Of a stretch of 9,444 nucleotides of DNA, positions 634 through 9,168 are shown in pieces. The position numbers were made by a program, and so were the translations under genes. The DNA comes from a virus (Duplodnaviria > Heunggongvirae > Uroviricota > Caudoviricetes), in IMG/VR virus record IMGVR_UViG_2695420714_000010; one strand, written 5' to 3'. Numbering within the stretch: the first letter of the stretch is position 1; every line of letters starts with the position of its first letter. Below the pieces are notes generated by a model. The model was not told where the DNA came from and made no database searches. It saw nothing but the letters and a program-made list of their open reading frames with translations.

Positions 634-852
634 CTAACGCGGGTATGTAATCATTCTGGCAATGCTTAATGCCGCTGCTTTTTCCAGATTGGTGATATCC
701 TGCTCCAGAGCGGACAGATTTTCAGCCTGCTTAGCTCTGGCTTCATTGGCCCATTTCAGATCCTGCGCTGCATTAATTTTCTGGTGCATCCACTCATAAA
801 GTTCATCATCGGTATAGTCTGGCGCGATGATGACGGGTTCTCGTTTCTGCAT
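634..852 (-). CDS. hypothetical small protein (72 aa, charged/helical), distal gene of the leftward early operon
   Basis: ORF-track ORF with ATG at 852 and an AGGAA Shine-Dalgarno about 7 nt upstream. Same strand as, and tightly packed behind, the two small genes at 882-1248. Sequence is protein-like (KINAAQDLKWANEARAKQAENLSALEQDITNLEKAAAL). Function not recognised. Confidence 0.5.
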   Translation of the reverse strand: MQKREPVIIAPDYTDDELYEWMHQKINAAQDLKWANEARAKQAENLSALEQDITNLEKAAALSIARMITYPR

Positions 853-881
853 ACTGATTCCTCGCGGTGCTGTTTCGCTTA

Positions 882-1010
882 TCAGCCGTTAGATTTTGCC
901 GAACTGGAAAGCGCCTGTTTAAATTCGTTGAAGCTGAGAGCTTCTTCGCCTTCGGCAAGACCTTCGAAGTATTCTTCGTAAGCCTTTTCCATGATTGTGT
1001 CGAAATCCAT
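882..1010 (-). CDS. small acidic protein (42 aa, MDFDTIMEKAYEEYFEGLAEGEEALSFNEFKQALSSSAKSNG)
   Basis: Below the ORF-track size cutoff; found by manual translation of the minus strand. ATG at 1010-1008 lies 1 nt after the stop of the upstream gene (1012-1014), stop TGA at 884-882. Clean helical, acidic composition. Size and position resemble the tiny genes next to racR in Rac-type prophages (ydaG/ydaF-like), assigned by position only. Confidence 0.4.
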   Translation of the reverse strand: MDFDTIMEKAYEEYFEGLAEGEEALSFNEFKQALSSSAKSNG

Positions 1011-1011
1011 A

Positions 1012-1248
1012 TCACTCACCTGAGTTTCTTTCCAGCCAGCGACGGGCACCATTTTCGGTTTTAAACGTTTTGCTTTTGGTATACGTCATCGCGGTGAACG
1101 TACCGTCCTGGTTGGGAAACACGCCGTACACCAGAGATTCGTTGTTGCCAAGATCGATAGTATCCATGTTGACCTCATTTCCCCTTAACGCCGGGGTAGC
1201 GGAACAAAAACCTGCTGCATAGTTATTAAAGTTGAACCCTGCCGTCAT
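1012..1248 (-). CDS. small early-left-operon protein; 78 aa from ATG 1248, or 51 aa if it starts at the internal ATG 1167 (MDTIDLGNNESLVYGVFPNQDGTFTAMTYTKSKTFKTENGARRWLERNSGE)
   Basis: ORF-track ORF. Both candidate starts have a GAGG-type Shine-Dalgarno (GAGG 8 nt upstream of 1248; GAGG 7 nt upstream of 1167). It is the first gene downstream of the leftward operator/promoter region. Possibly YdaF-like (DUF1391) from memory; not verified. Confidence 0.45.
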   Translation of the reverse strand: MTAGFNFNNYAAGFCSATPALRGNEVNMDTIDLGNNESLVYGVFPNQDGTFTAMTYTKSKTFKTENGARRWLERNSGE

Positions 1249-1349
1249 GTTCTTACGCCTCGGGCTGGCTACTTAACCCCTGACCACTGCCTGGTAACTC
1301 GAAGTATTGCCCTGCATTCTGTGGGGTGGGGTGGGTTGGTATGAAAGGA

Positions 1350-1392
1350 AGGATACCCATGGGTATCCAAAAAGTAAATACCCATGGGTAAT
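1350..1392. promoter_or_regulatory. OL-like operator pair overlapping a candidate leftward promoter
   Basis: Perfect 18-bp palindrome GGATACCCATGGGTATCC at 1351-1368 and a second site ATACCCATGGGTAAT at 1378-1392. On the minus strand: candidate -35 TTTACT (plus 1378-1373), 17-bp spacer, -10 TATCCT (plus 1355-1350). The palindrome sits across the spacer and -10, which is classic repression geometry. Confidence 0.5.
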
Positions 1393-1432
1393 TTTTTGAT
1401 GTGTCTTAACTGGTGACTGGTTGTTTGGTGAG

Positions 1433-1852
1433 TTATGATGCGTTTTGTGCTTTCTTTTTACGGATTTCTTCGTAGATCATATTGTAATACTGTTTTTTCT
1501 CTTCAAGAGTTTTTAATAAGTTATCCGCTTCACTTTCTGGCAGTTCGTCTAAGAGATCTAAAAAAATACGTTGTCGTGGCGTTAGAACCCTTGTTTCATA
1601 ATTGGAGGCTGTGTTCGTTGATGATGAAACGATACCATCCATCCATCCCCGGGGTAACCCAAAGGACTCTTCTATAATCTCCACCATATCATCAGCGATC
1701 CGTTTTTTTCCTTTTTTCCCCTCTGGGTACAACATTCTTGATACATAAGAAGGCTCGCGACCGATCTTTCTGGCCACGTTAACCGCTTTACCATCGCATT
1801 TCTCATCACGAATTTTGATGAGTTGTTGTCGTCTAAATTCATATTTGTCCAT
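1433..1852 (-). CDS. phage repressor, HTH (Xre/CI-like) DNA-binding protein without a peptidase domain (RacR-like architecture), 139 aa from ATG 1852
   Basis: ORF-track ORF 1433-1894, but the start at 1894 is TTG; the first ATG at 1852 gives MDKYEF.... HTH-like segment KAVNVARKIGREPSYVSRMLYP. Sits between two operator clusters and is divergent from a cro-like gene. No Ser/Lys S24 peptidase domain (too short). Confidence 0.7.
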   Translation of the reverse strand: MDKYEFRRQQLIKIRDEKCDGKAVNVARKIGREPSYVSRMLYPEGKKGKKRIADDMVEIIEESFGLPRGWMDGIVSSSTNTASNYETRVLTPRQRIFLDLLDELPESEADNLLKTLEEKKQYYNMIYEEIRKKKAQNAS

Positions 1853-1952
1853 AGGTAAATAATAGATGCGATTACCGCAAGGTAAACAACCCAAGGGTAT
1901 TGACTTTTGTTTACCTGTGGGTATTCTTTGCTGTGTTTACTAAGGAGTAGCT
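1853..1952. promoter_or_regulatory. OR-like divergent promoter/operator region between the repressor and the cro-like gene
   Basis: Operator-like sites ACCCAAGGGTAT (1889-1900) and ACCTGTGGGTAT (1913-1924) match the OL palindrome half-sites. Additional inverted repeats TTACC-GCAA-GGTAA (1872-1885) and GGTAAACAA / TTGTTTACC (1881-1889 / 1908-1916). Rightward promoter: -35 TTGACT (1900-1905), 16-bp spacer, -10 TATTCT (1922-1927). Leftward -10 TATTAT (plus 1864-1859) ends 6 nt before the repressor ATG. Confidence 0.5.
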
Positions 1953-2234
1953 ATGGAAGAATTAAGAATATTTCTCAATTCTCTTTCGTCAGATGAACAG
2001 CGTATGTTTGCATGTGAGTGTGGTACTAGCATCGGTTATCTAAGAAAGGCATTGAGTAAAGGTCAAATGTTAGGGGCATCGTTATGTGTCCTTATTGAGC
2101 GAGCCAGTAATGGTGAAGTTACACGTCAGCAACTAAGGCCTTTTGATTGGATGAATATTTGGCCCGAGCTGGAAGATACCAAAACGTTAACACAACCACT
2201 TACTAGGAGCTTGATTCATGAAAATCAAGCATGA
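1953..2234 (+). CDS. Cro/YdaS-like small HTH regulator (93 aa)
   Basis: ORF-track ORF with a strong Shine-Dalgarno AAGGAG 5 nt upstream of ATG 1953. Divergent from the repressor. Carries an HTH-like segment (GTSIGYLRKALSKGQ) and the NIWPEL-type C-terminal motif I associate with the YdaS/Cro family. Stop overlaps the start of the next gene. Confidence 0.65.
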   Translation: MEELRIFLNSLSSDEQRMFACECGTSIGYLRKALSKGQMLGASLCVLIERASNGEVTRQQLRPFDWMNIWPELEDTKTLTQPLTRSLIHENQA

Positions 2235-2643
2235 ACACATCCGCATGGCGATGAATGCCTGGGCGCGTCCTGATGGCGAAAAAGTTCCAGCAGCTGGAAT
2301 AACCCAGGCTTATTTTGAGTTGGGTATGACGTTTCCTGAACTGTATGACGACAGCCATCCGGAAGCCCTGGCTCGCAATACCCAGAAAATTTTCCGCTGG
2401 GTAGAGAAAGACACCCCTGATGCAGTTGAAAAAATTCAGGCGTTGTTACCAGCGATCGAAAAGGCAATGCCACCTTTGCTGGTGGCCAGAATGCGCAGCC
2501 ACAGTTCAGCTTATTTTCGGGAGTTGGTGGAGACGCGGGAGCGACTGGTGAGAGACGCTGATGATTTTGTCGCAGTGGCAATCGCCGGTTTCAATCAGAT
2601 GAACCGTGGTGGCCCGGCAGGAAATGCTGTGGCAGTACATTGA
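2218..2643 (+). CDS. YdaT-like / CII-like regulatory protein (141 aa)
   Basis: ORF-track ORF, AGGAG 9 nt upstream of ATG 2218, overlapping the cro-like stop by 17 nt (operon coupling). Its position immediately after cro and before the replication gene matches lambda cII and Rac ydaT. Family assignment rests on synteny and memory, not on a search. Confidence 0.5.
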   Translation: MKIKHEHIRMAMNAWARPDGEKVPAAGITQAYFELGMTFPELYDDSHPEALARNTQKIFRWVEKDTPDAVEKIQALLPAIEKAMPPLLVARMRSHSSAYFRELVETRERLVRDADDFVAVAIAGFNQMNRGGPAGNAVAVH

Positions 2644-2714
2644 CTGACAATAGCCATATCGAATCGCTTCCGGCAATTCGTGAGTAAAAAGATTCGGTAT
2701 CAGAAGAGGTGAGT

Positions 2715-2873
2715 ATGGCTAACGCCTGGCTCAGATTATGGCATGACATGCCAAATGACCCTAAGTGGCGAACAATTGCCAGGGTGTCAGGGCAGCCAAT
2801 TGCAACAGTGATGGCAGTGTATATCCACGCTCCTGGTGAGCGCGTCACGAAATGTCACGCGAGGTCACATTGA
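2715..2873 (+). CDS. N-terminal segment of a phage replication initiator (MANAWLRLWHDMPNDPKWRTIARVSGQPIATVMAVYIHA...), terminated prematurely inside an iteron block
   Basis: ATG 2715 with GAGGTGAG Shine-Dalgarno. The 52-codon frame ends at TGA 2871-2873 after reading through iteron sequence (RVTKCHARSH). The N-terminus has the A-W-x-R-L pattern typical of phage replisome-organiser N-domains (recognised from memory). The downstream ORF continues in the +1 frame. Confidence 0.45.
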   Translation: MANAWLRLWHDMPNDPKWRTIARVSGQPIATVMAVYIHAPGERVTKCHARSH

Positions 2874-3786
2874 TGTCACGACAGAAGATTTGGCAAGTGC
2901 GCTCGACGTGACAGAAGAGGTAATTGATTCAATTTTGCAGACGATGCAGGGGCGGGTACTTGATGGTGATTTAATCACTGGATGGGAAAAACGCCAGGTG
3001 CTTAAAGAGGACAACGGCAATATTTCGCAAACCGCAAAATCTCCGGCAGAGCGCAAGAGGGCGCAGCGTGAGAGGGAAAGAAAGCGGGAACAAAATGGCG
3101 ATTGTCACGGCGCGTCACGAAATGTCACGCACATGTCACGACGAGTCACGACAGATAAAGATACAGATAGAGATACAGATAAAGAAGATCAAAACACTAT
3201 GGTCCATGGCGTAAAAAACGCCACGAACCATGTAGGGGATGTTCAGACCGTCACTCCTGGCCAGCCCGCAGGCACGACACCGGAAGCCGATTCAGCGTAT
3301 GCGCTGAAAGCCGATTCGGGCGCTGTGCAGCAGGCGATGACCGCTGGGCCGGAGCAATCACACCAACTGCAGCAGCCTGAAGCCGATTCCGCCATTCAGC
3401 GGGAAGCCGATCGGGTAGTCCCGGAAAACACCGGGCAGCCTGTGGGACGAGTGGATTATCCGGATGTGTTCGAACAGGTCTGGCGGGAATACCCGTTACG
3501 AGCCGGGGCAAACCCGAAGAAATCCGCTTTCAGTGCCTGGAAGGCCAGATTACGCGAGGGGGTGCCACCAGAGGCCATGCTGGATGGTGTAAGGCGTTAC
3601 ACAAGATACCTGGCTGCTACCGGGAAAACGGGAACGGAATTTGTTCAGCGAGCGACGACGTTTTTTGGACCGGACCGGAATTTTGAAAACCCCTGGTTGC
3701 TCCCGGTAAGCGGCACGAACAACCAGCGTTGTGTTAATCATATTTCTGAACCGGACACCGAAATTCCGCCGGGATTCAGAGGGTAA
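2836..3786 (+). CDS. replication initiator (O-like / YdaU-like), main ORF in the +1 frame relative to 2715; contains the origin iterons
   Basis: ORF-track ORF (GTG 2836; frame open upstream back to 2812). Domain-end motif ...DGDLITGWEKRQ, followed by iteron-encoded and acidic/basic linker sequence (DKDTDRDTDKED), then a C-terminal domain (YPDVFEQVWREYPLRAGANPKKSAFSAWKARL...). Iterons inside the gene mirror the lambda O/ori arrangement. Confidence 0.6.
   Translation: MSASRNVTRGHIDVTTEDLASALDVTEEVIDSILQTMQGRVLDGDLITGWEKRQVLKEDNGNISQTAKSPAERKRAQRERERKREQNGDCHGASRNVTHMSRRVTTDKDTDRDTDKEDQNTMVHGVKNATNHVGDVQTVTPGQPAGTTPEADSAYALKADSGAVQQAMTAGPEQSHQLQQPEADSAIQREADRVVPENTGQPVGRVDYPDVFEQVWREYPLRAGANPKKSAFSAWKARLREGVPPEAMLDGVRRYTRYLAATGKTGTEFVQRATTFFGPDRNFENPWLLPVSGTNNQRCVNHISEPDTEIPPGFRG
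2844..2880. repeat. iteron block A: four GTCAC(G/A) repeats at 10-11 bp spacing; contains an exact 21-bp copy of part of block B
   Basis: GTCACG at 2844, 2854 and 2875, GTCACA at 2864. GCGCGTCACGAAATGTCACGC (2840-2860) is identical to 3100-3120. Coincides with the frame break in the initiator gene. Confidence 0.55.
3104..3186. repeat. candidate replication origin: five GTCACG iterons (3104-3150) followed by three tandem 12-bp repeats ACAGATA(A/G)AGA(T/A) (3151-3186)
   Basis: GTCACG at 3104, 3114, 3124, 3135 and 3145 (one helical turn apart), followed by an A-rich tandem repeat. Lies in the inter-domain linker of the initiator gene, as in lambda ori. Confidence 0.6.
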
Positions 3787-3823
3787 CAGATTTCAGGTCA
3801 TGGGGTAATTTTCAGGAGGGCTT

Positions 3824-4099
3824 GTGGCAAAAGTTTTTACTCCCGAACTGCGGGAAGAAGTGAAGGCGCGCATTGTGGAACTGGTACGCAGAGATGGGCG
3901 AAAAACGCGTAAACAACTGGAAAATGAAACCGGGGCGACGAGACACCTGATAGAAGTTCTGGTGAAAGAGCTGGTAGTTAGTGGCGCAGTATATGGTTCA
4001 GGACATGGAATATTTCCTTCGGAGCAGGCTCGTAAGGACTGGGGAAAAGCCCGCAAAAAAAATGTCGAGAGCGGCAGTGAAAAAGAAGAGCGACCCTGA
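3824..4099 (+). CDS. small DNA-binding protein with a predicted winged-helix/HTH and a lysine/glutamate-rich tail (91 aa); possible regulator
   Basis: ORF-track ORF. GTG start at 3824 with a strong AGGAGG Shine-Dalgarno 4-5 nt upstream. HTH-like segment TRKQLENETGATRHLIEVLVKEL. Confidence 0.5.
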   Translation: MAKVFTPELREEVKARIVELVRRDGRKTRKQLENETGATRHLIEVLVKELVVSGAVYGSGHGIFPSEQARKDWGKARKKNVESGSEKEERP

Positions 4100-4232
4100 C
4101 CTGATTTATTCATTGCTAGATGGCGAAATACGCCGTTACAACAGACGACAGAATATAATTTGTCGCGAGTGTCGTCAGAGCGAAGTTATGCAGCGCATAC
4201 TGGAATTTTATCAGGGAAATGTTCGGTATTAA
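4059..4232 (+). CDS. small hypothetical protein (about 57 aa, MSRAAVKKKSDPDLIYSLLDGEIRRYNRRQNIICRECRQSEVMQRILEFYQGNVRY)
   Basis: Part of ORF-track ORF 3981-4232. The N-terminal part of that ORF overlaps the 3824-4099 gene out of frame, so ATG 4059 is preferred. No convincing Shine-Dalgarno. Could instead be the frameshifted continuation of the upstream gene. Confidence 0.25.
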   Translation, partial: KMSRAAVKKKSDPDLIYSLLDGEIRRYNRRQNIICRECRQSEVMQRILEFYQGNVRY

Positions 4233-4376
4233 TTGAAGTGACGAAATTAAAGAGCATTAGTTCAGATATTAATTGACACTTCGATGGCACAGGCCCAGAC
4301 CTAGTCTGGTTGTCAGCTTTGAGCTAGGTGAACGTTGGTATCGTTAGTTTGTATTAATCAACGGAGAATAGGCCAA

Positions 4377-4407
4377 ATGACTTTTCTTTGCCTCTTTTAA
4401 TTATAAT
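4377..4407 (+). promoter_or_regulatory. candidate sigma70 promoter for the 932-aa gene
   Basis: Perfect -10 TATAAT at 4402-4407 in an AT-rich intergenic region, with a weak -35 (ATGACT at 4377-4382, long spacer). Lies about 70 bp upstream of ATG 4476. Confidence 0.3.
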
Positions 4408-4475
4408 TCAAGTTCAATTGATTACATTGAAGTACTAATGTGAGTCCGTCAAACAAATAGCTCAAGGAATAGGTC

Positions 4476-7274
4476 ATGTGGGGAAGTGAAAACAAACAAA
4501 ATCTGGACGTACTGGATCCTGTGCAGTTGGTGCGTATCGAAGCGGTACACCGGGGGTTCCTTTACCAGCATCTTTACGCTGTAGGCTGCTTACTTTTGGC
4601 GCAGAGGGCAGCTATGGACTCAGTAACTGTCGAGCTTGATGAGGATATTGAGCTGAAATCCAAACAGGAACGTCTCTACATTCAGGTTAAAACCCGTTCA
4701 AAACCTATTATGCCCAACGATGTGTCGGGGGCTCTGGAGCGATTTGTAAAGCTCAGAAATGAGCATACTTCGGCAAACCGCGAAGGGGTGGCTTCTTTTG
4801 TGATTATTGTAAACCAGGCGCCTGGACCGCTGCTTCAGAAGATGATTGACGATAAAAAGCTTCCTTCTGATGTTCTTATTGTCTGGCCCCAGTCGACAGC
4901 TGGACGTCACCCGGCACTTCCGCCCGCATGGAGTACTCTGGCTGATGCGGCCACATGGTGTATCGCAGAAGCAGAAAAGCTGAAATTTTCACTATTGTCC
5001 CCAGAATCCTTGATTTGGAAGTTAGCAGGATTGGTTCAGCTTGCCGCCACCGGAGGCGATACCAATGGACAACATACGTTTTTCACGGAAGAACTTACTG
5101 AACTATTTGAACAGTTGATCGTTCAGCTACAGGACTTTCCTGCACCACCAGCACTGTACCGCCCACAGAACGAAGAACCTTCTCTCACATCTGGTGAGCG
5201 GATCCGTATCCTTTGTGGACTCTCAGGTGCAGGCAAGACAGCTTGGGCCGCACAGGCCGCATTACACTCCACTGCACTTTGTGCTTATTACGACACCGGT
5301 GATCTTCCCGGTCCAGCTCTGGCCAGTACGCTGGTGCGCGAGATGGCTGCTAGATTTACAGCCCGTGACCAAGACGGTTTGCGCAGGATTTTGCTCCCCG
5401 GTGCCAGTGGTTTTGAGGCTCTTAGGAGTTTTGATACCTACCTGAAAGAGCAGGGTACCACCTTGGTGCTGGTTCTGGATAACGCCCATCGTGTACCTGC
5501 GGAAAATCTACTGGATGTTCTGAATGCAACTACACATATTCGTTTTGTGCTGTTGTGCCAGCCTCACGAAAACGTTCGCGAACTGGAGGTCATGACGGGG
5601 CTACAGCGCGAGGGCCTGCAGGGATGGAATCTCGATACGGTAGCTGTCGTTGTAAACGATATCGGAGGATTTGCCACCGCTATGGGATACGAGCAGCTAC
5701 GGGCTTACACTGGTGGTCTTCCCCTGTATGTAGAGAGCGCCGCAAAAATCGCCGTTTCTGATTATGAGCGTAATGTCGATGCTCTGTGTGCTGAACTCCA
5801 GCAACAAACCCATACTGCGGAAACCGCCCAAGAAATTATTCTGTCACGTGTATTTCAGGGATTTGAATCACTACTTCAGAGCGCGCTGGCATTGTTCAGT
5901 CTCTCTGACGTAGGGCTGAGTCGCGAAGAGATTTCTACGCTCCTAATCAATTCGCTGAACATTTCACCAAGCAGTGCTGCTTCTTTAATTAGGAAAATGC
6001 GCGCTACTGGCACTATTGAAATTTATGGAAACCAGACCCTGAAGGTACATGATGCTGTCAGGGGGCTAGGACTGCAACATCTGGAACTGATGGATCAGGG
6101 TATATCGAACAAAGCGCTACTAGCGCTGAAAGACCTTTTAGTTGAAAGTCTTCATAATACCCGCAATACAAAACGGTTATCGTTGTTGACTCAACTTTAT
6201 ATTAAGCTCAATGATGTCACGACGTTGATCGAACTCTCAGGCCAAGAAATGTTTTATGAGATGGGCGTGACGGTCGACATTCTTGCAAGCTTGGAGCGTG
6301 CTGCAACATCGGACTTATTGGGACCTGTTCATAAATTCTGGGCATTGGATGGCCTTGTTTTCGTTGAGCTTAAAGACGGAATATCCGACCACATTGCTCA
6401 GAGGTTAAACATCATGGGAGCTTTACTTGCGGAGCACAAGTTCGGCTATCAAGAAGAGATGGCCTATGCAATGAAACGAATGTTATTTTCGGCAGAAAGC
6501 AATGATGCACGAGAAGTTCAAAAGCTGGCACAGGAAGTCCGCCCCCAACTCCCAGATGAAGAACATAAACGCATCTTTGACTACAACCATGCCATTGCAC
6601 TCTGGAGATTAAAAAAACTCAAGGATGCTGAAACATTAAGCTGTAATGTTATACAAGGGTACTATTCTTTATTTGGTATCACACCTGCTGATGTCATAGG
6701 AAAAAACGCCGACGCATTATGGAAAACTATTAATCATTCCGAAAATATGCAGGAACACTTTAAACATATGGCTGATGCTCTGGAGTTGCTGGCCAGAATT
6801 CGTGATGCGCAGGGAAAACTGTCACCATTACTGCGTATTCATTCGATGAAGTTCTACAATCTGGCCATGGCCCCGGAATCCATGGTCAGGGTGGGCCAAG
6901 ATCTGGCGGATGAGTTTGTTGCCATAAAGGATTACGACGGTGCCAAGGAAGTCATGGAGCAACATGTCCTGCCGGTTGTCAATGAGGCAGGTCTAGTACA
7001 TCGACTGATTCAGGTTCGAAGCCAATACGCAGTCATATTAGCACTATCGGGTCAGCATAAAGCAGCTGATGTCGAAATGCAGCGCCTTGCTCCCTATATC
7101 GAAGGCCTCACAGGTGTACAGCGTCAAGAAATCCAAAATCAATCAAATTACATCGTACAGCTTGCCCATAAAGCAGCAAAGACTAAATTAACTGAAGTTT
7201 TTGGTGCGGTCGGCCGGAATGAACAATGCCCCTGTGGCTCGGGAATAAAGTACAAAAAATGTCACGGTGCCTGA
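4476..7274 (+). CDS. large multidomain protein (932 aa): N-terminal PD-(D/E)xK-like nuclease region, STAND-type P-loop NTPase, winged helix with VHD motif, helical-repeat C-terminal region, terminal SEC-C zinc motif; candidate antiviral STAND (Avs-like) defence protein
   Basis: Single uninterrupted ORF with AAGGA about 10 nt upstream of the ATG. Walker A ILCGLSGAGKT (nt 5217-5240), Walker B TLVLVLDNAH (nt 5463-5483), VHD motif KVHDAVRGL (nt 6042-6068), SEC-C CPCGSGIKYKKCHG (nt 7227-7268), N-terminal VELDEDIELK...YIQVK (nt 4632-4691). The gene is certain; the function is inferred from motifs only. Confidence 0.85.
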   Translation: MWGSENKQNLDVLDPVQLVRIEAVHRGFLYQHLYAVGCLLLAQRAAMDSVTVELDEDIELKSKQERLYIQVKTRSKPIMPNDVSGALERFVKLRNEHTSANREGVASFVIIVNQAPGPLLQKMIDDKKLPSDVLIVWPQSTAGRHPALPPAWSTLADAATWCIAEAEKLKFSLLSPESLIWKLAGLVQLAATGGDTNGQHTFFTEELTELFEQLIVQLQDFPAPPALYRPQNEEPSLTSGERIRILCGLSGAGKTAWAAQAALHSTALCAYYDTGDLPGPALASTLVREMAARFTARDQDGLRRILLPGASGFEALRSFDTYLKEQGTTLVLVLDNAHRVPAENLLDVLNATTHIRFVLLCQPHENVRELEVMTGLQREGLQGWNLDTVAVVVNDIGGFATAMGYEQLRAYTGGLPLYVESAAKIAVSDYERNVDALCAELQQQTHTAETAQEIILSRVFQGFESLLQSALALFSLSDVGLSREEISTLLINSLNISPSSAASLIRKMRATGTIEIYGNQTLKVHDAVRGLGLQHLELMDQGISNKALLALKDLLVESLHNTRNTKRLSLLTQLYIKLNDVTTLIELSGQEMFYEMGVTVDILASLERAATSDLLGPVHKFWALDGLVFVELKDGISDHIAQRLNIMGALLAEHKFGYQEEMAYAMKRMLFSAESNDAREVQKLAQEVRPQLPDEEHKRIFDYNHAIALWRLKKLKDAETLSCNVIQGYYSLFGITPADVIGKNADALWKTINHSENMQEHFKHMADALELLARIRDAQGKLSPLLRIHSMKFYNLAMAPESMVRVGQDLADEFVAIKDYDGAKEVMEQHVLPVVNEAGLVHRLIQVRSQYAVILALSGQHKAADVEMQRLAPYIEGLTGVQRQEIQNQSNYIVQLAHKAAKTKLTEVFGAVGRNEQCPCGSGIKYKKCHGA

Positions 7275-7551
7275 GTCTTTGTACGACCATGCGGGCCTTA
7301 TTGTCTTGCTATTGCTCTTATGGTTCGCCTTTCTGATTGATTTCATATTGGCGAGGTGACGGGAGTTAAGTAGAATGGCTGCGGGTGCTTGAGGCTATCT
7401 GTCTCAGGCATGAACACCAAAGGCAGATAGAGAAAAGCCCCAGTTAACATTACGCGTCCTGCAAGACGCTTAACATTAATCTGAGGCTCAATCTATGAAC
7501 GGCAAATCTAGGTTAGCCTCTTACGTGCCGAAAGGCAAGGAGAAGCAGGCT

Positions 7552-7707
7552 ATGAAGCAGCAAAAGGCGATGTTAATCGTCCTGATCGTCATCTGTTTAA
7601 CCGTCATAGTGACGGCACTGGTAACGAGGAAAGACCTCTGCGAGGTACGAATCCGAACCGGCCAGACGGAGGTCGCTGTCTTCACAGCTTACGAACCTGA
7701 GGAGTAA
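7552..7707 (+). CDS. hokD: Hok/Gef-family membrane toxin (51 aa), HokD/RelF-like
   Basis: MKQQKAMLIVLIVICLTVIVTALVTRKDLCEVRIRTGQTEVAVFTAYEPEE: single hydrophobic helix plus the conserved LVTRKxLCE...EVAVFxAYE signature of Hok/Gef toxins. Matches my recollection of E. coli RelF/HokD almost residue for residue. AAGGAG about 9 nt upstream of ATG 7552. The ORF track extends the frame to 7495, but the 51-aa form fits the family. Confidence 0.8.
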   Translation: MKQQKAMLIVLIVICLTVIVTALVTRKDLCEVRIRTGQTEVAVFTAYEPEE

Positions 7708-7802: not shown

Positions 7803-7874
7803 CCTGGCATTCTGGTTTACAATTCGCACGCCAGCCTGAACAACTGGCACCTGCTGCGCCAGCAGAGACAACCG

Positions 7875-8153
7875 ATGGCGCACGATACCAAATTACACAA
7901 TTCTAATGATTCTGCTGTCTTTGCCAGCAGGTGCGGACGGCGTTTTCACGCATTCACATCAGACTGGTTCCAGCATCCTCCATGCACTGAAGAGCAGGCT
8001 GAATGGATAATTCAGTGTTACCGCAGGCGTGGATACGAGGTTAAGAAAGCTCTTAGTCTCGACTATCGTCACTGGATAATCTCAGTCAGACTCCCTTACT
8101 CCGAACGCCCACCGCGTCCGTCCCGCACATTCCAGCAACGCATCTGGAGGTAA
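7875..8153 (+). CDS. small prophage protein, copy 1 (92 aa; conserved core WFQHPPCTEEQAEWIIQCYRRRGYEVKKALSLDYRHWIISVRLP); possibly Rem-like by position
   Basis: In-frame ATG inside ORF-track ORF 7746-8153. The upstream part of that ORF overlaps the hok terminator and has no counterpart in the paralogue at 8575, so the start is placed at 7875. Translationally coupled to the next gene. Confidence 0.55.
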   Translation: MAHDTKLHNSNDSAVFASRCGRRFHAFTSDWFQHPPCTEEQAEWIIQCYRRRGYEVKKALSLDYRHWIISVRLPYSERPPRPSRTFQQRIWR

Positions 8154-8468
8154 CGTGCGGGTATTACTTCGACCTGTTCTGGTACCGGAACTCGGGCTGG
8201 TGATCGTTAAGCCGGGCCGTGAATCCATGCCGGTATTCCACAATACCCGGGTACTGGTGGAGCCGGAACCGAAAAGCATGCGTAATCTGCCGTCCGGGGT
8301 CGTTCCTGCCGTTCGCCAGCCGCTGGTGGAAGACAAAACATTGCTGCCGTTTTTCAGTAACGCACGGGTGATTCGTGCTGCTGGTGGTGCTGGTGCATTG
8401 TCTGACTGGCTGTTGCGCCATATTAAATCCTGCCAGTGGCCACACGGCGATTATCATCACAGCGAAAC
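7875..8468. repeat. direct repeat, copy A of the small-gene + DUF968 cassette (paired with 8575-9168, offset exactly 700 bp)
   Basis: From about 7961 to 8468 the sequence is near-identical to 8661-9168 by eye. The 5' 85 bp (7875-7960 vs 8575-8660) are homologous but diverged. Confidence 0.7.
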
Positions 8469-8508: not shown

Positions 8509-8574
8509 ACTCATCTACAATCTTGCGCGGGGCTGAACTCCCGCTGAGTAACACCGTGCCACCGGAGAAAACCG

Positions 8575-8853
8575 ATGGCACGCAACGTAAAATATTACAA
8601 TTCTGATAATTCGCCCGTTCTTGCCTGCACGCACGAGCGGTATTCTCACGCATTCAAGTCTGAATGGTTCCAGCACCCTCCATGCACTGAAGAGCAGGCG
8701 GAATGGATAATTCAGTGTTACCGCAGGCGCGGATACGAGGTTAAGAAAGCTCTTAGTCTCGACTACCGTCACTGGATAATCTCAGTCAGATTGCCTAACT
8801 CCGAACGCCCACCGCGTCCGTCCCGTACATTCCAGCAACGCATCTGGAGGTAA
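8575..8853 (+). CDS. small prophage protein, copy 2 (92 aa), paralogue of 7875-8153
   Basis: ORF-track ORF with ATG 8575 and GGAG about 8 nt upstream. N-terminal 30 aa diverged from copy 1, the remainder near-identical. Confidence 0.65.
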   Translation: MARNVKYYNSDNSPVLACTHERYSHAFKSEWFQHPPCTEEQAEWIIQCYRRRGYEVKKALSLDYRHWIISVRLPNSERPPRPSRTFQQRIWR

Positions 8854-9168
8854 CGTGCGGGTATTACTTCGACCTGTTCTGGTACCGGAACTCGGGATGG
8901 TGGTCGTTAAGCCGGGCCGTGAATCCATGCCGGTATTCCACAATACCCGGGTACTGGTGGAGCCGGAACCGAAAAGCATGCGTAATCTGCCGTCCGGGGT
9001 CGTTCCTGCCGTTCGCCAGCCGCTGGTGGAAGACAAAACATTGCTGCCGTTTTTCAGTAACGCACGGGTAATTCGTGCTGCTGGTGGTGCTGGTGCATTG
9101 TCTGACTGGCTGTTGTGCCATATTAAATCCTGCCAGTGGCCACACGGCGATTATCATCACAGCGAAAC
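8575..9168. repeat. direct repeat, copy B of the small-gene + DUF968 cassette
   Basis: See copy A. Identity ends at 8468/9168, after which copy A has unrelated sequence and copy B continues as coding sequence. Confidence 0.7.

Follow-up and report, generated by a model that had tools for sequence, protein, structure and literature searches.

Why does a phage replication-initiator gene carry two arrays of the same short repeat, and why does its reading frame break beside one of them? We address both questions for a 9,444-nucleotide stretch of viral DNA (the window; IMG/VR record IMGVR_UViG_2695420714_000010). The gene lies where lambda carries gene O, after genes for a cI-like repressor, the Cro-like YdaS and YdaT. 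In this phage type it is followed by no P-, DnaC- or DnaB-like gene; relatives hold lambda P, IstB/DnaC-like or DnaB genes at the same place. We regard it as likely that the window, a contig of an E. coli draft genome, comes from a DicB/Qin-like lambdoid prophage in decay and carries its immunity and replication region. Within this prophage, a pseudogenised initiator of the replisome-organizer type probably encloses an intact two-part origin (Table 1).

Table 1 Coordinates of the initiator gene, its lesion and the elements of its candidate origin, in window positions.
Feature	Position	Strand	Remarks
Replication-initiator gene, replisome-organizer type, pseudogenised by a +1 frameshift	2715..3786	+	Intact form 1071 nt, 356 aa; PHROG 3729
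Conserved N-terminal helical domain (through GWEKRQ), presumed origin-binding	2715..2997	+	38-100% identity, E. coli to Ralstonia phages
Inserted G (CCAC[G]CTCC), frame-breaking mutation	2829..2829	+	15 bp upstream of block A; outside any homopolymer
Block A, four direct iterons (GTCACG, GTCACG, GTCACA, GTCACG)	2844..2880	+	Spacing 10, 10, 11
Single inverted iteron, CGTGAC on + strand, within codons D-V-T	2907..2912	-	
Coding region of conserved basic helix (AERKRAQRERERKRE), just upstream of block B	3042..3092	+	Helix 110-126 in AlphaFold; differs between iteron classes
Block B, five direct GTCACG iterons in disordered linker	3104..3150	+	Spacing 10, 10, 11, 10
Three 12-bp A-rich repeats (ACAGATAAAGAT) ending in GATC, encoding TDKDTDRDTDKED; presumed DNA-unwinding element	3151..3190 (repeats 3151-3186)	+	
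Imperfect palindrome, 14-bp arms, just after A-rich repeats	3199..3231	.	Single-stranded DNA fold
C-terminal domain related to DnaT (primosomal protein I) C-terminal domain	3454..3783	+	pLDDT 78-94

Frame 0 of the gene, read from the ATG at 2715, ends at a stop codon at 2871-2873, while the +1 frame is open from 2812, directly after a TGA at 2809-2811, to 3786. When the window is aligned with three intact copies of the gene, the extra G2829 is the sole difference at the break, and a pairwise comparison with the 99.9% identical copy from E. coli Z1322HEC0003 (L001) agrees. Deleting G2829 in silico yields the 356-aa protein of that copy. From 749 to 6900, the window differs from L001 at only two places, G2829 and an extra T in a T-run at 1392. 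The initiator gene is evidently pseudogenised by this +1 frameshift, with its predicted product truncated after codon 38.

A search of the PHROG families gives an end-to-end match of the intact protein to PHROG 3729, "replication initiation protein" (E = 5e-253), and the NCBI name for the intact E. coli protein cluster, which has ~5,800 member sequences, is "phage replisome organizer". Weaker matches are found to the "replisome organizer" PHROGs 4880 and 5968 (E = 4e-6 and 4e-4) and to "DnaD-like helicase loader" PHROGs. The score against TIGR01714 (phage_rep_org_N) is sub-threshold (15.5 bits, E = 0.015, cut-off 49.8), and any relationship to TIGR01714 or to SPP1 gp38-like replisome organizers appears remote at best. 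Pfam assigns no domain to the initiator: Phage_rep_O, the lambda O family, is not matched even at E 0.1, there is no Rep_3 or WH1-WH2 match of the kind that marks iteron-plasmid Rep proteins, and the N-terminal domain reaches no curated family threshold.

An AlphaFold model (pLDDT 63) divides the protein into a helical N-terminal domain (residues 4-77, with helices at 4-11, 16-25, 29-48, 56-63 and 67-77), the basic helix, a disordered segment (residues 128-211) and a confident C-terminal domain. A Foldseek search of this mediocre full-length model against the PDB returned nothing at E < 1, only noise-level HTH proteins. The family profile, compared with the PDB, finds solved DnaT C-terminal domains: 6aep (E = 1.8e-6, over chain residues 7-96 of 102), 2ru8 (E = 2e-4) and 9zbt (E = 5e-4). 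The DnaT orthology model NF002770 scores 18.2 bits against a cut-off of 201 and aligns the last 24 residues only. The basic helix may contribute to DNA binding, and the C-terminal domain presumably connects the origin complex to host helicase loading.

On the + strand, GTCACR begins at 2844, 2854, 2864 and 2875 in block A and at 3104, 3114, 3124, 3135 and 3145 in block B, which lies ~260 bp further downstream. The gene has arrays of at least four direct repeats about one helical turn apart, as would be expected of a lambda-type intragenic iteron origin. The whole window contains 18 matches to GTCACR where 8.96 are expected, and a count of 18 is reached in only 1 of 200 shuffles. The 21-mer GCGCGTCACGAAATGTCACGC is present in exact copies at 2840 and 3110, with no third copy in the window. 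The translation of block A covers the end of helix 3 and a loop that varies in length (SRNVTRGHIDVT). The single inverted iteron has a counterpart, GTGAC at the equal gene position, in most homologues that use GTCACG.

The interval 3150-3189, directly beyond block B, is a local GC minimum (GC 0.30, AT skew +0.57) with a purine-rich top strand, and in composition it corresponds to the AT-rich region that adjoins the iterons of lambda-type origins. A (ACAGAT/GATAAA)n sequence adjoins block B on its 3′ side in homologues of every iteron class. The palindrome that follows folds as DNA at -9.5 kcal/mol (z = -3.8), a value equalled by 0 of 200 shuffles; a GGCG-loop-CGCC hairpin is found at the same place in two divergent homologues (L156 and L157) and, in weaker form, in a third (L158). 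In oriλ, the iterons are followed by an AT-rich region with a palindrome to its right, and the order of iterons, A-rich repeats and palindrome is the same here. A scan for DnaA boxes (TTWTNCACA, at most one mismatch) gave 17 matches against 18 expected and zero in the origin; a near-DnaA-box at the frameshift site (TATATCCAC) was considered and set aside. A promoter scan of 1800-4000 found nothing beyond chance.

This anatomy agrees in most respects with an earlier note on the same DNA, made from the letters alone. The note had described a replication-initiator gene, and the PHROG 3729 match supports that identification. Its two clusters of GTCAC(G/A) at 10-11-bp spacing are borne out by the + strand positions, as are the exact 21-bp copy of block B within block A, the three 12-bp A-rich repeats after block B and the broken frame, with frame 0 stopping at 2871 and the +1 frame running over 2812-3786. 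Its likening of the iteron-like repeats and A-rich stretch in the linker of the gene to the lambda ori in gene O is likewise supported.

We then asked how widely the two-array arrangement is kept. Homologous genes were gathered from GTDB genomes, GenBank phages and IMG/VR, and a second IMG/VR scan, seeded with a Ralstonia phage protein, supplied extra iteron classes. A locus was scored as sharing its repeat when the same hexamer occurred at least twice in each of two segments, the equivalent of block A and the 230 nt that follow the GWxxRQ motif (block B); this test was used because automatically choosing the top hexamer in block B proved noisy. A shared hexamer is found in both blocks, with ~0 copies elsewhere in the gene, at 34 of 39 loci, and 20 of 25 further phage or IMG/VR loci show the same pattern, although many of the loci are closely related and both counts overstate the number of independent events. 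In shuffled controls, any hexamer repeated at least twice in both blocks arose in 0-5 of 300 trials.

The hexamers fall into five classes (GTCACG, GTAACG, GCAACG, GTGACG and (C)GAACGC) of the general form GNNACG, and the class is always equal between block A and block B of the same gene. Ralstonia phage Firinga, with an N-terminal domain 38% identical, carries GCAACG at gene nt 130, 140, 151, 161 and 182 and again at 401-431; in the E. coli gene, the equivalent hexamers are at nt 129-160 and 389-430, and block A starts at ~129-130 in both. Across homologues the blocks are 250-350 bp apart, a distance that does not in every case amount to whole turns of the helix. Part of the match between the blocks could be due to gene conversion. 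Judged by this distribution, block A is native to the gene and ancient, not an insertion.

The two repeat clusters together probably form the phage replication origin. In the model that we favour, the initiator is predicted to bind both same-strand arrays, in which there is about one iteron per helical turn, with the N-terminal domain, possibly together with the basic helix, as the presumed binder of both. Bound initiators would oligomerise, and the intervening DNA may loop. The A-rich repeats would then melt, and the DnaT-like domain would hand the open DNA to the host DnaB/DnaC machinery.

Block A could instead be a control element that lies outside the firing origin, both arrays still being sites for the initiator. 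It could act by titration or handcuffing, as P1 incA and F incC do, or as an intragenic roadblock that throttles initiator transcription. Iteron plasmids offer the precedent: in P1 (incC/incA) and F (incB/incC), two arrays of the same orientation flank rep, one of them beside the unwinding element, and the layout has a role in control. Here, too, the A-rich element adjoins block B only. Some family members (L029, L037, L052, L053 and L152) have no block A although block B, the A-rich element and the gene are in place; the family can thus do without block A, which points to an accessory and perhaps regulatory role. Two considerations weigh on the other side, namely that block A, where present, is as strongly conserved as block B, and that lytic phage replication has a less obvious need for copy control. 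On balance we think a purely controlling block A unlikely, if by no means far-fetched, and retain the two-part origin as the preferred reading.

A further role can be imagined for block A in such a two-part origin, in that the N-terminal loop it encodes might itself help to set iteron specificity. Between the five iteron classes, the domain otherwise hardly varies, and the residues that discriminate the classes are mainly those translated from the iterons and those of the adjacent basic helix. We regard this idea as doubtful. If it were true, a single stretch of DNA would serve as a binding site and also encode the part of the protein that reads it, any change of iteron would alter both, and the gene would have an inherent means of evolving new origin specificities incompatible with one another.

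The coding sequence of block A bears a second layer of constraint. At conserved codons, third-position entropy is 0.31 bits in block A, compared with 1.37 bits for the remainder of the domain (Mann-Whitney p = 4.5e-5), in a comparison of 22 GTCACG-class genes in which synonymous sites are saturated, flanking codons serve as the internal control and phylogeny is ignored. The codons GTC for Val47 and ACG for Thr48 are fixed in 22/22 genes while the spacer codon for Arg49 is free, and the Val65 codon of the inverted copy is GTG in 19/19. These patterns indicate that block A is under DNA-level selection atop its coding constraint. The block A loop is modelled with low confidence and accepts whole-iteron insertions of 7 aa, equivalent to two more iterons (L005 and L040; E. 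albertii and E. coli FCI23). Since block A lies in this insertion-tolerant loop and block B in a disordered linker, the iterons appear to sit where the protein tolerates them.

It might be argued that the repeats exist for the sake of the protein, as a repeated peptide motif SRNVT, and not as DNA sites. The two blocks do share a reading frame and encode similar peptides (ASRNVTRGH and ASRNVTHMS). Yet the hexamers occupy all three codon phases at their 10-11-bp spacing and are therefore a DNA repeat, not a peptide repeat; synonymous positions are fixed beside a free spacer codon; and the linker that block B encodes is disordered and otherwise unconserved. A peptide origin for the repeats is accordingly very unlikely, and we continue to treat both arrays as candidate initiator-binding DNA.

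The second question, the broken frame, is answered by comparison with other copies of the gene. Of 5,426 complete E. coli genomes, ~1,650 give a Megablast match to it at ≥80% coverage, as do several phages. The 60 best matches of those ~1,650 are all unbroken at the break site with block A in frame, and they span 1069-1071 nt, bar two at 1105 nt in two pieces. Block A is also in frame in the intact homologues of E. coli Z1322HEC0003 and of phages 640R1 and Tritos. In IMG/VR, 80/80 copies are unbroken at the site and carry block A in frame; these came from a scan with the family alignment and all match the query exactly in residues 1-100, and they thus speak to intactness, not to diversity. In the intact copies that we fetched, the annotation shows a single 1071-nt ORF for a 356-aa protein. 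The expectation in the earlier note of intact homologues that are single ORFs without block A thus holds for the single ORF and fails for block A.

Sixteen recorded contigs carry a 316-aa ORF that is exclusive to the frameshift allele. We read ten of them (L041-L050), and all ten carry the G and the extra T, with 0 mismatches over 2700-3790. Seven are from isolate assemblies at NCBI and three from metagenome assemblies (gut or other) at ENA, together covering at least 10 samples and several projects; one is the window itself (CYAC01000057.1, GCA_001284205.1). A lookup of the 52-aa and 54-aa N-terminal fragments specific to the allele found none on record. Recurring as it does in ten contigs from different samples, the G marks an inherited allele, not an error of sequencing. 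The +G allele is real, inherited, rare and lineage-specific.

A sequencing or assembly error in the window contig, one of the alternatives raised in the earlier note, would at first sight suit the comparison with L001, where two single-base insertions over 749-6900, one of them in a T-run, make a typical indel-error pattern. The recurrence of both insertions in 10/10 contigs read, with 16 on record, and the position of G2829 away from any homopolymer leave this explanation highly improbable.

No more probable is the note's other alternative, a genuine two-ORF arrangement or programmed +1 frameshift that yields a functional product from the broken gene. Gene finders do call the 316-aa ORF, from a GTG at 2836. 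That start, however, has no Shine-Dalgarno sequence upstream, and the product would lack helices 1-3 of the conserved domain. A programmed frameshift should be kept among homologues as a two-frame arrangement, and all those examined are a single ORF at the site: the best 60 of the ~1,650 genome copies, the three annotated copies and the 80 IMG/VR copies are unbroken there. Given the rarity of the allele, and with a single ORF in every other copy examined, we reject this alternative. The downstream neighbour, a DUF977 (Ren-like) gene, is also frameshifted in the window lineage, which fits a decaying prophage. The initiator frameshift is ordinary prophage decay.

The earlier note's own explanation, in which origin iterons were ectopically inserted or duplicated into the N-terminal domain as block A and so inactivated the initiator, has next to no probability: the exact 21-mer common to both blocks and the frame that is arithmetically restored by removing the 40 bp at 2841-2880 speak for it, but any 3n+1 deletion there would do the same, this one would drop LLVSASRNVTRGHIDVT with the family-invariant residues L40, V41, A43, S44, T48, V54 and T55, the synonymous sites of block A appear to be under selection, intact homologues from E. 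coli to Ralstonia phages carry it in frame at the equal gene position, and the real lesion is the +G at 2829.

In the G2829 lineage, then, no functional initiator would be made, and every candidate cis element of the origin is kept. With the initiator truncated after codon 38, the predicted origin is so left orphaned but intact. A defective prophage with nine or ten intact iterons and no initiator could, speculatively, titrate the initiator of a related superinfecting phage. More broadly, it appears that proteobacterial phage initiators of a large family have a two-part origin within their own coding sequence. The family offers a natural example of overlapping codes for protein and DNA site, and its five co-varying specificities are candidate orthogonal initiator/iteron pairs. 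For many prophages of E. coli and Shigella in which the replication module is annotated only as "hypothetical protein" or "replisome organizer", the arrays also point to a candidate origin.

Several known systems share parts of this design. In the O genes of lambda and the Stx phages (933W and P27, with six-iteron origins), direct iterons lie in the part that encodes the initiator linker and are also translated, the Stx phages having additional translated iterons in O (PMC7466680). The linker-coding direct iterons here are alike. So is the predicted protein plan, an origin-binding N-terminal domain with an exchangeable helicase-loading C-terminal module, and in this family, too, the N-terminal-plus-origin and C-terminal modules recombine. 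The differences lie in the sites, which are GNNACG hexamers ~10 bp apart here and 19-bp sites of inverted symmetry in lambda; in the second array within the region coding for the folded domain; in the lack of a Phage_rep_O match; and in the absence of a following P-like loader gene, in place of which the initiator has its DnaT-like C-terminal domain. Compared with E. coli DnaT itself, that domain gives a profile match and is fused to a presumed origin-binding domain, and the protein is not a DnaT orthologue.

The SPP1 replisome organizer gp38 binds direct repeats in its own gene (oriL), beside an AT-rich unwinding element (PMC6316719). The placing of origin repeats, here candidate ones, within the organizer's own gene is common to both phages. 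SPP1 differs in that its second site, oriR, is ~13 kb away, whereas both arrays here are in one gene, and in that helicase and loader genes follow there and not here. The iteron plasmids P1 and F resemble the present gene in having two same-orientation iteron arrays for one initiator; here, in contrast, both arrays are inside the initiator coding sequence, and the element is a phage. Our literature searches for this origin, including its second array, found no description, which is weak evidence of absence given an incomplete searchable literature. Set against these systems, the second array within the domain-coding region is the distinctive feature of the gene, which we see as a modestly novel variation on a known design.

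The initiator encoded by the frame-broken gene is modular. Its N-terminal domain, together with the iterons that accompany it, is joined to at least two distinct C-terminal modules (proteins P0045, P0048, P0057, P0090 and P0114), one YPxxFE/DnaT-like and the other a PF17948 DnaT-like ssDNA-binding module, and one C-terminal module is also attached to unrelated N-terminal domains. The modules meet at the acidic A-rich repeats and an 'NTMVHG' motif (window ~3170–3200), so that the putative unwinding element also serves as a recombination joint. When the N-terminal domains associated with five different iteron hexamers are aligned, the domain is near-invariant between classes, and the variation that does separate them falls in the residues translated from block A, the four-iteron cluster, and in the segment or basic helix that follows GWxxRQ.

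Another architecture is built on the same N-terminal domain in Serratia and Pantoea genomes, where two genes (L035:1501-2691 and L038:1501-2805) fuse this domain to a different downstream region. This region codes for a repeated YVYYV...GISRNPWAR motif and carries ACTACGTA-type repeats in place of the GNNACG iterons. Block A is absent from both of these genes.

The inserted G that breaks the initiator frame converts TCCACCT to TCCACGC (window 2824–2830) and thereby creates an iteron-like CACGC core. The new core precedes the first iteron of block A by exactly 20 bp, or two repeat periods, which is probably a coincidence. A second single-base change is found at window 1392, where a T-run (AATTTTTTGA) is one T longer than in Z1322HEC0003, the 99.9% identical E. 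coli copy. The extra T falls within the spacer that precedes the cI-like repressor gene and is common to all ten frameshift-allele contigs that were read.

Features of the window outside the initiator gene
Feature	Window position	Strand	Details
DicF sRNA	240–291	−	76.7 bits
DUF977 (Ren-like / 'LygF') gene	3824–4232		3′ of the initiator gene; broken into two ORFs (91 and 83 aa) that overlap
932-aa ORF	4476–7274		between the replication region and the nin-like region
hok/sok module	7383–7707	+	sok 7383–7557 at 110 bits; Hok ORF 7495–7707
Direct repeat	7858–8157 and 8558–8857		700-bp period, 86% identity

The split DUF977 gene is a further mark of prophage decay. Its counterparts in phages 640R1 and Tritos are 140 aa long, and the gene is annotated as 'frameshifted' in Z1322HEC0003, which retains an intact initiator; the DUF977 frameshift predates the +G allele. 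The 932-aa ORF is a possible anti-phage defence moron, with a SEC-C motif at its C terminus and weak matches to Cap4 nuclease, AAA_22 and LmuA-like proteins at its N terminus, and it is absent from the corresponding position in 640R1 and Tritos.

Toward the end of the window, the direct repeat takes in a small ORF together with the first part of a DUF968-like gene. At this repeat, related contigs that carry the +G allele diverge or terminate (L043–L045 versus L041 and L042), and the region may therefore have been collapsed or mis-assembled in draft genomes. Finally, the presence of both the DicF sRNA and the hok/sok module identifies the element as a DicB/Qin-like lambdoid prophage.
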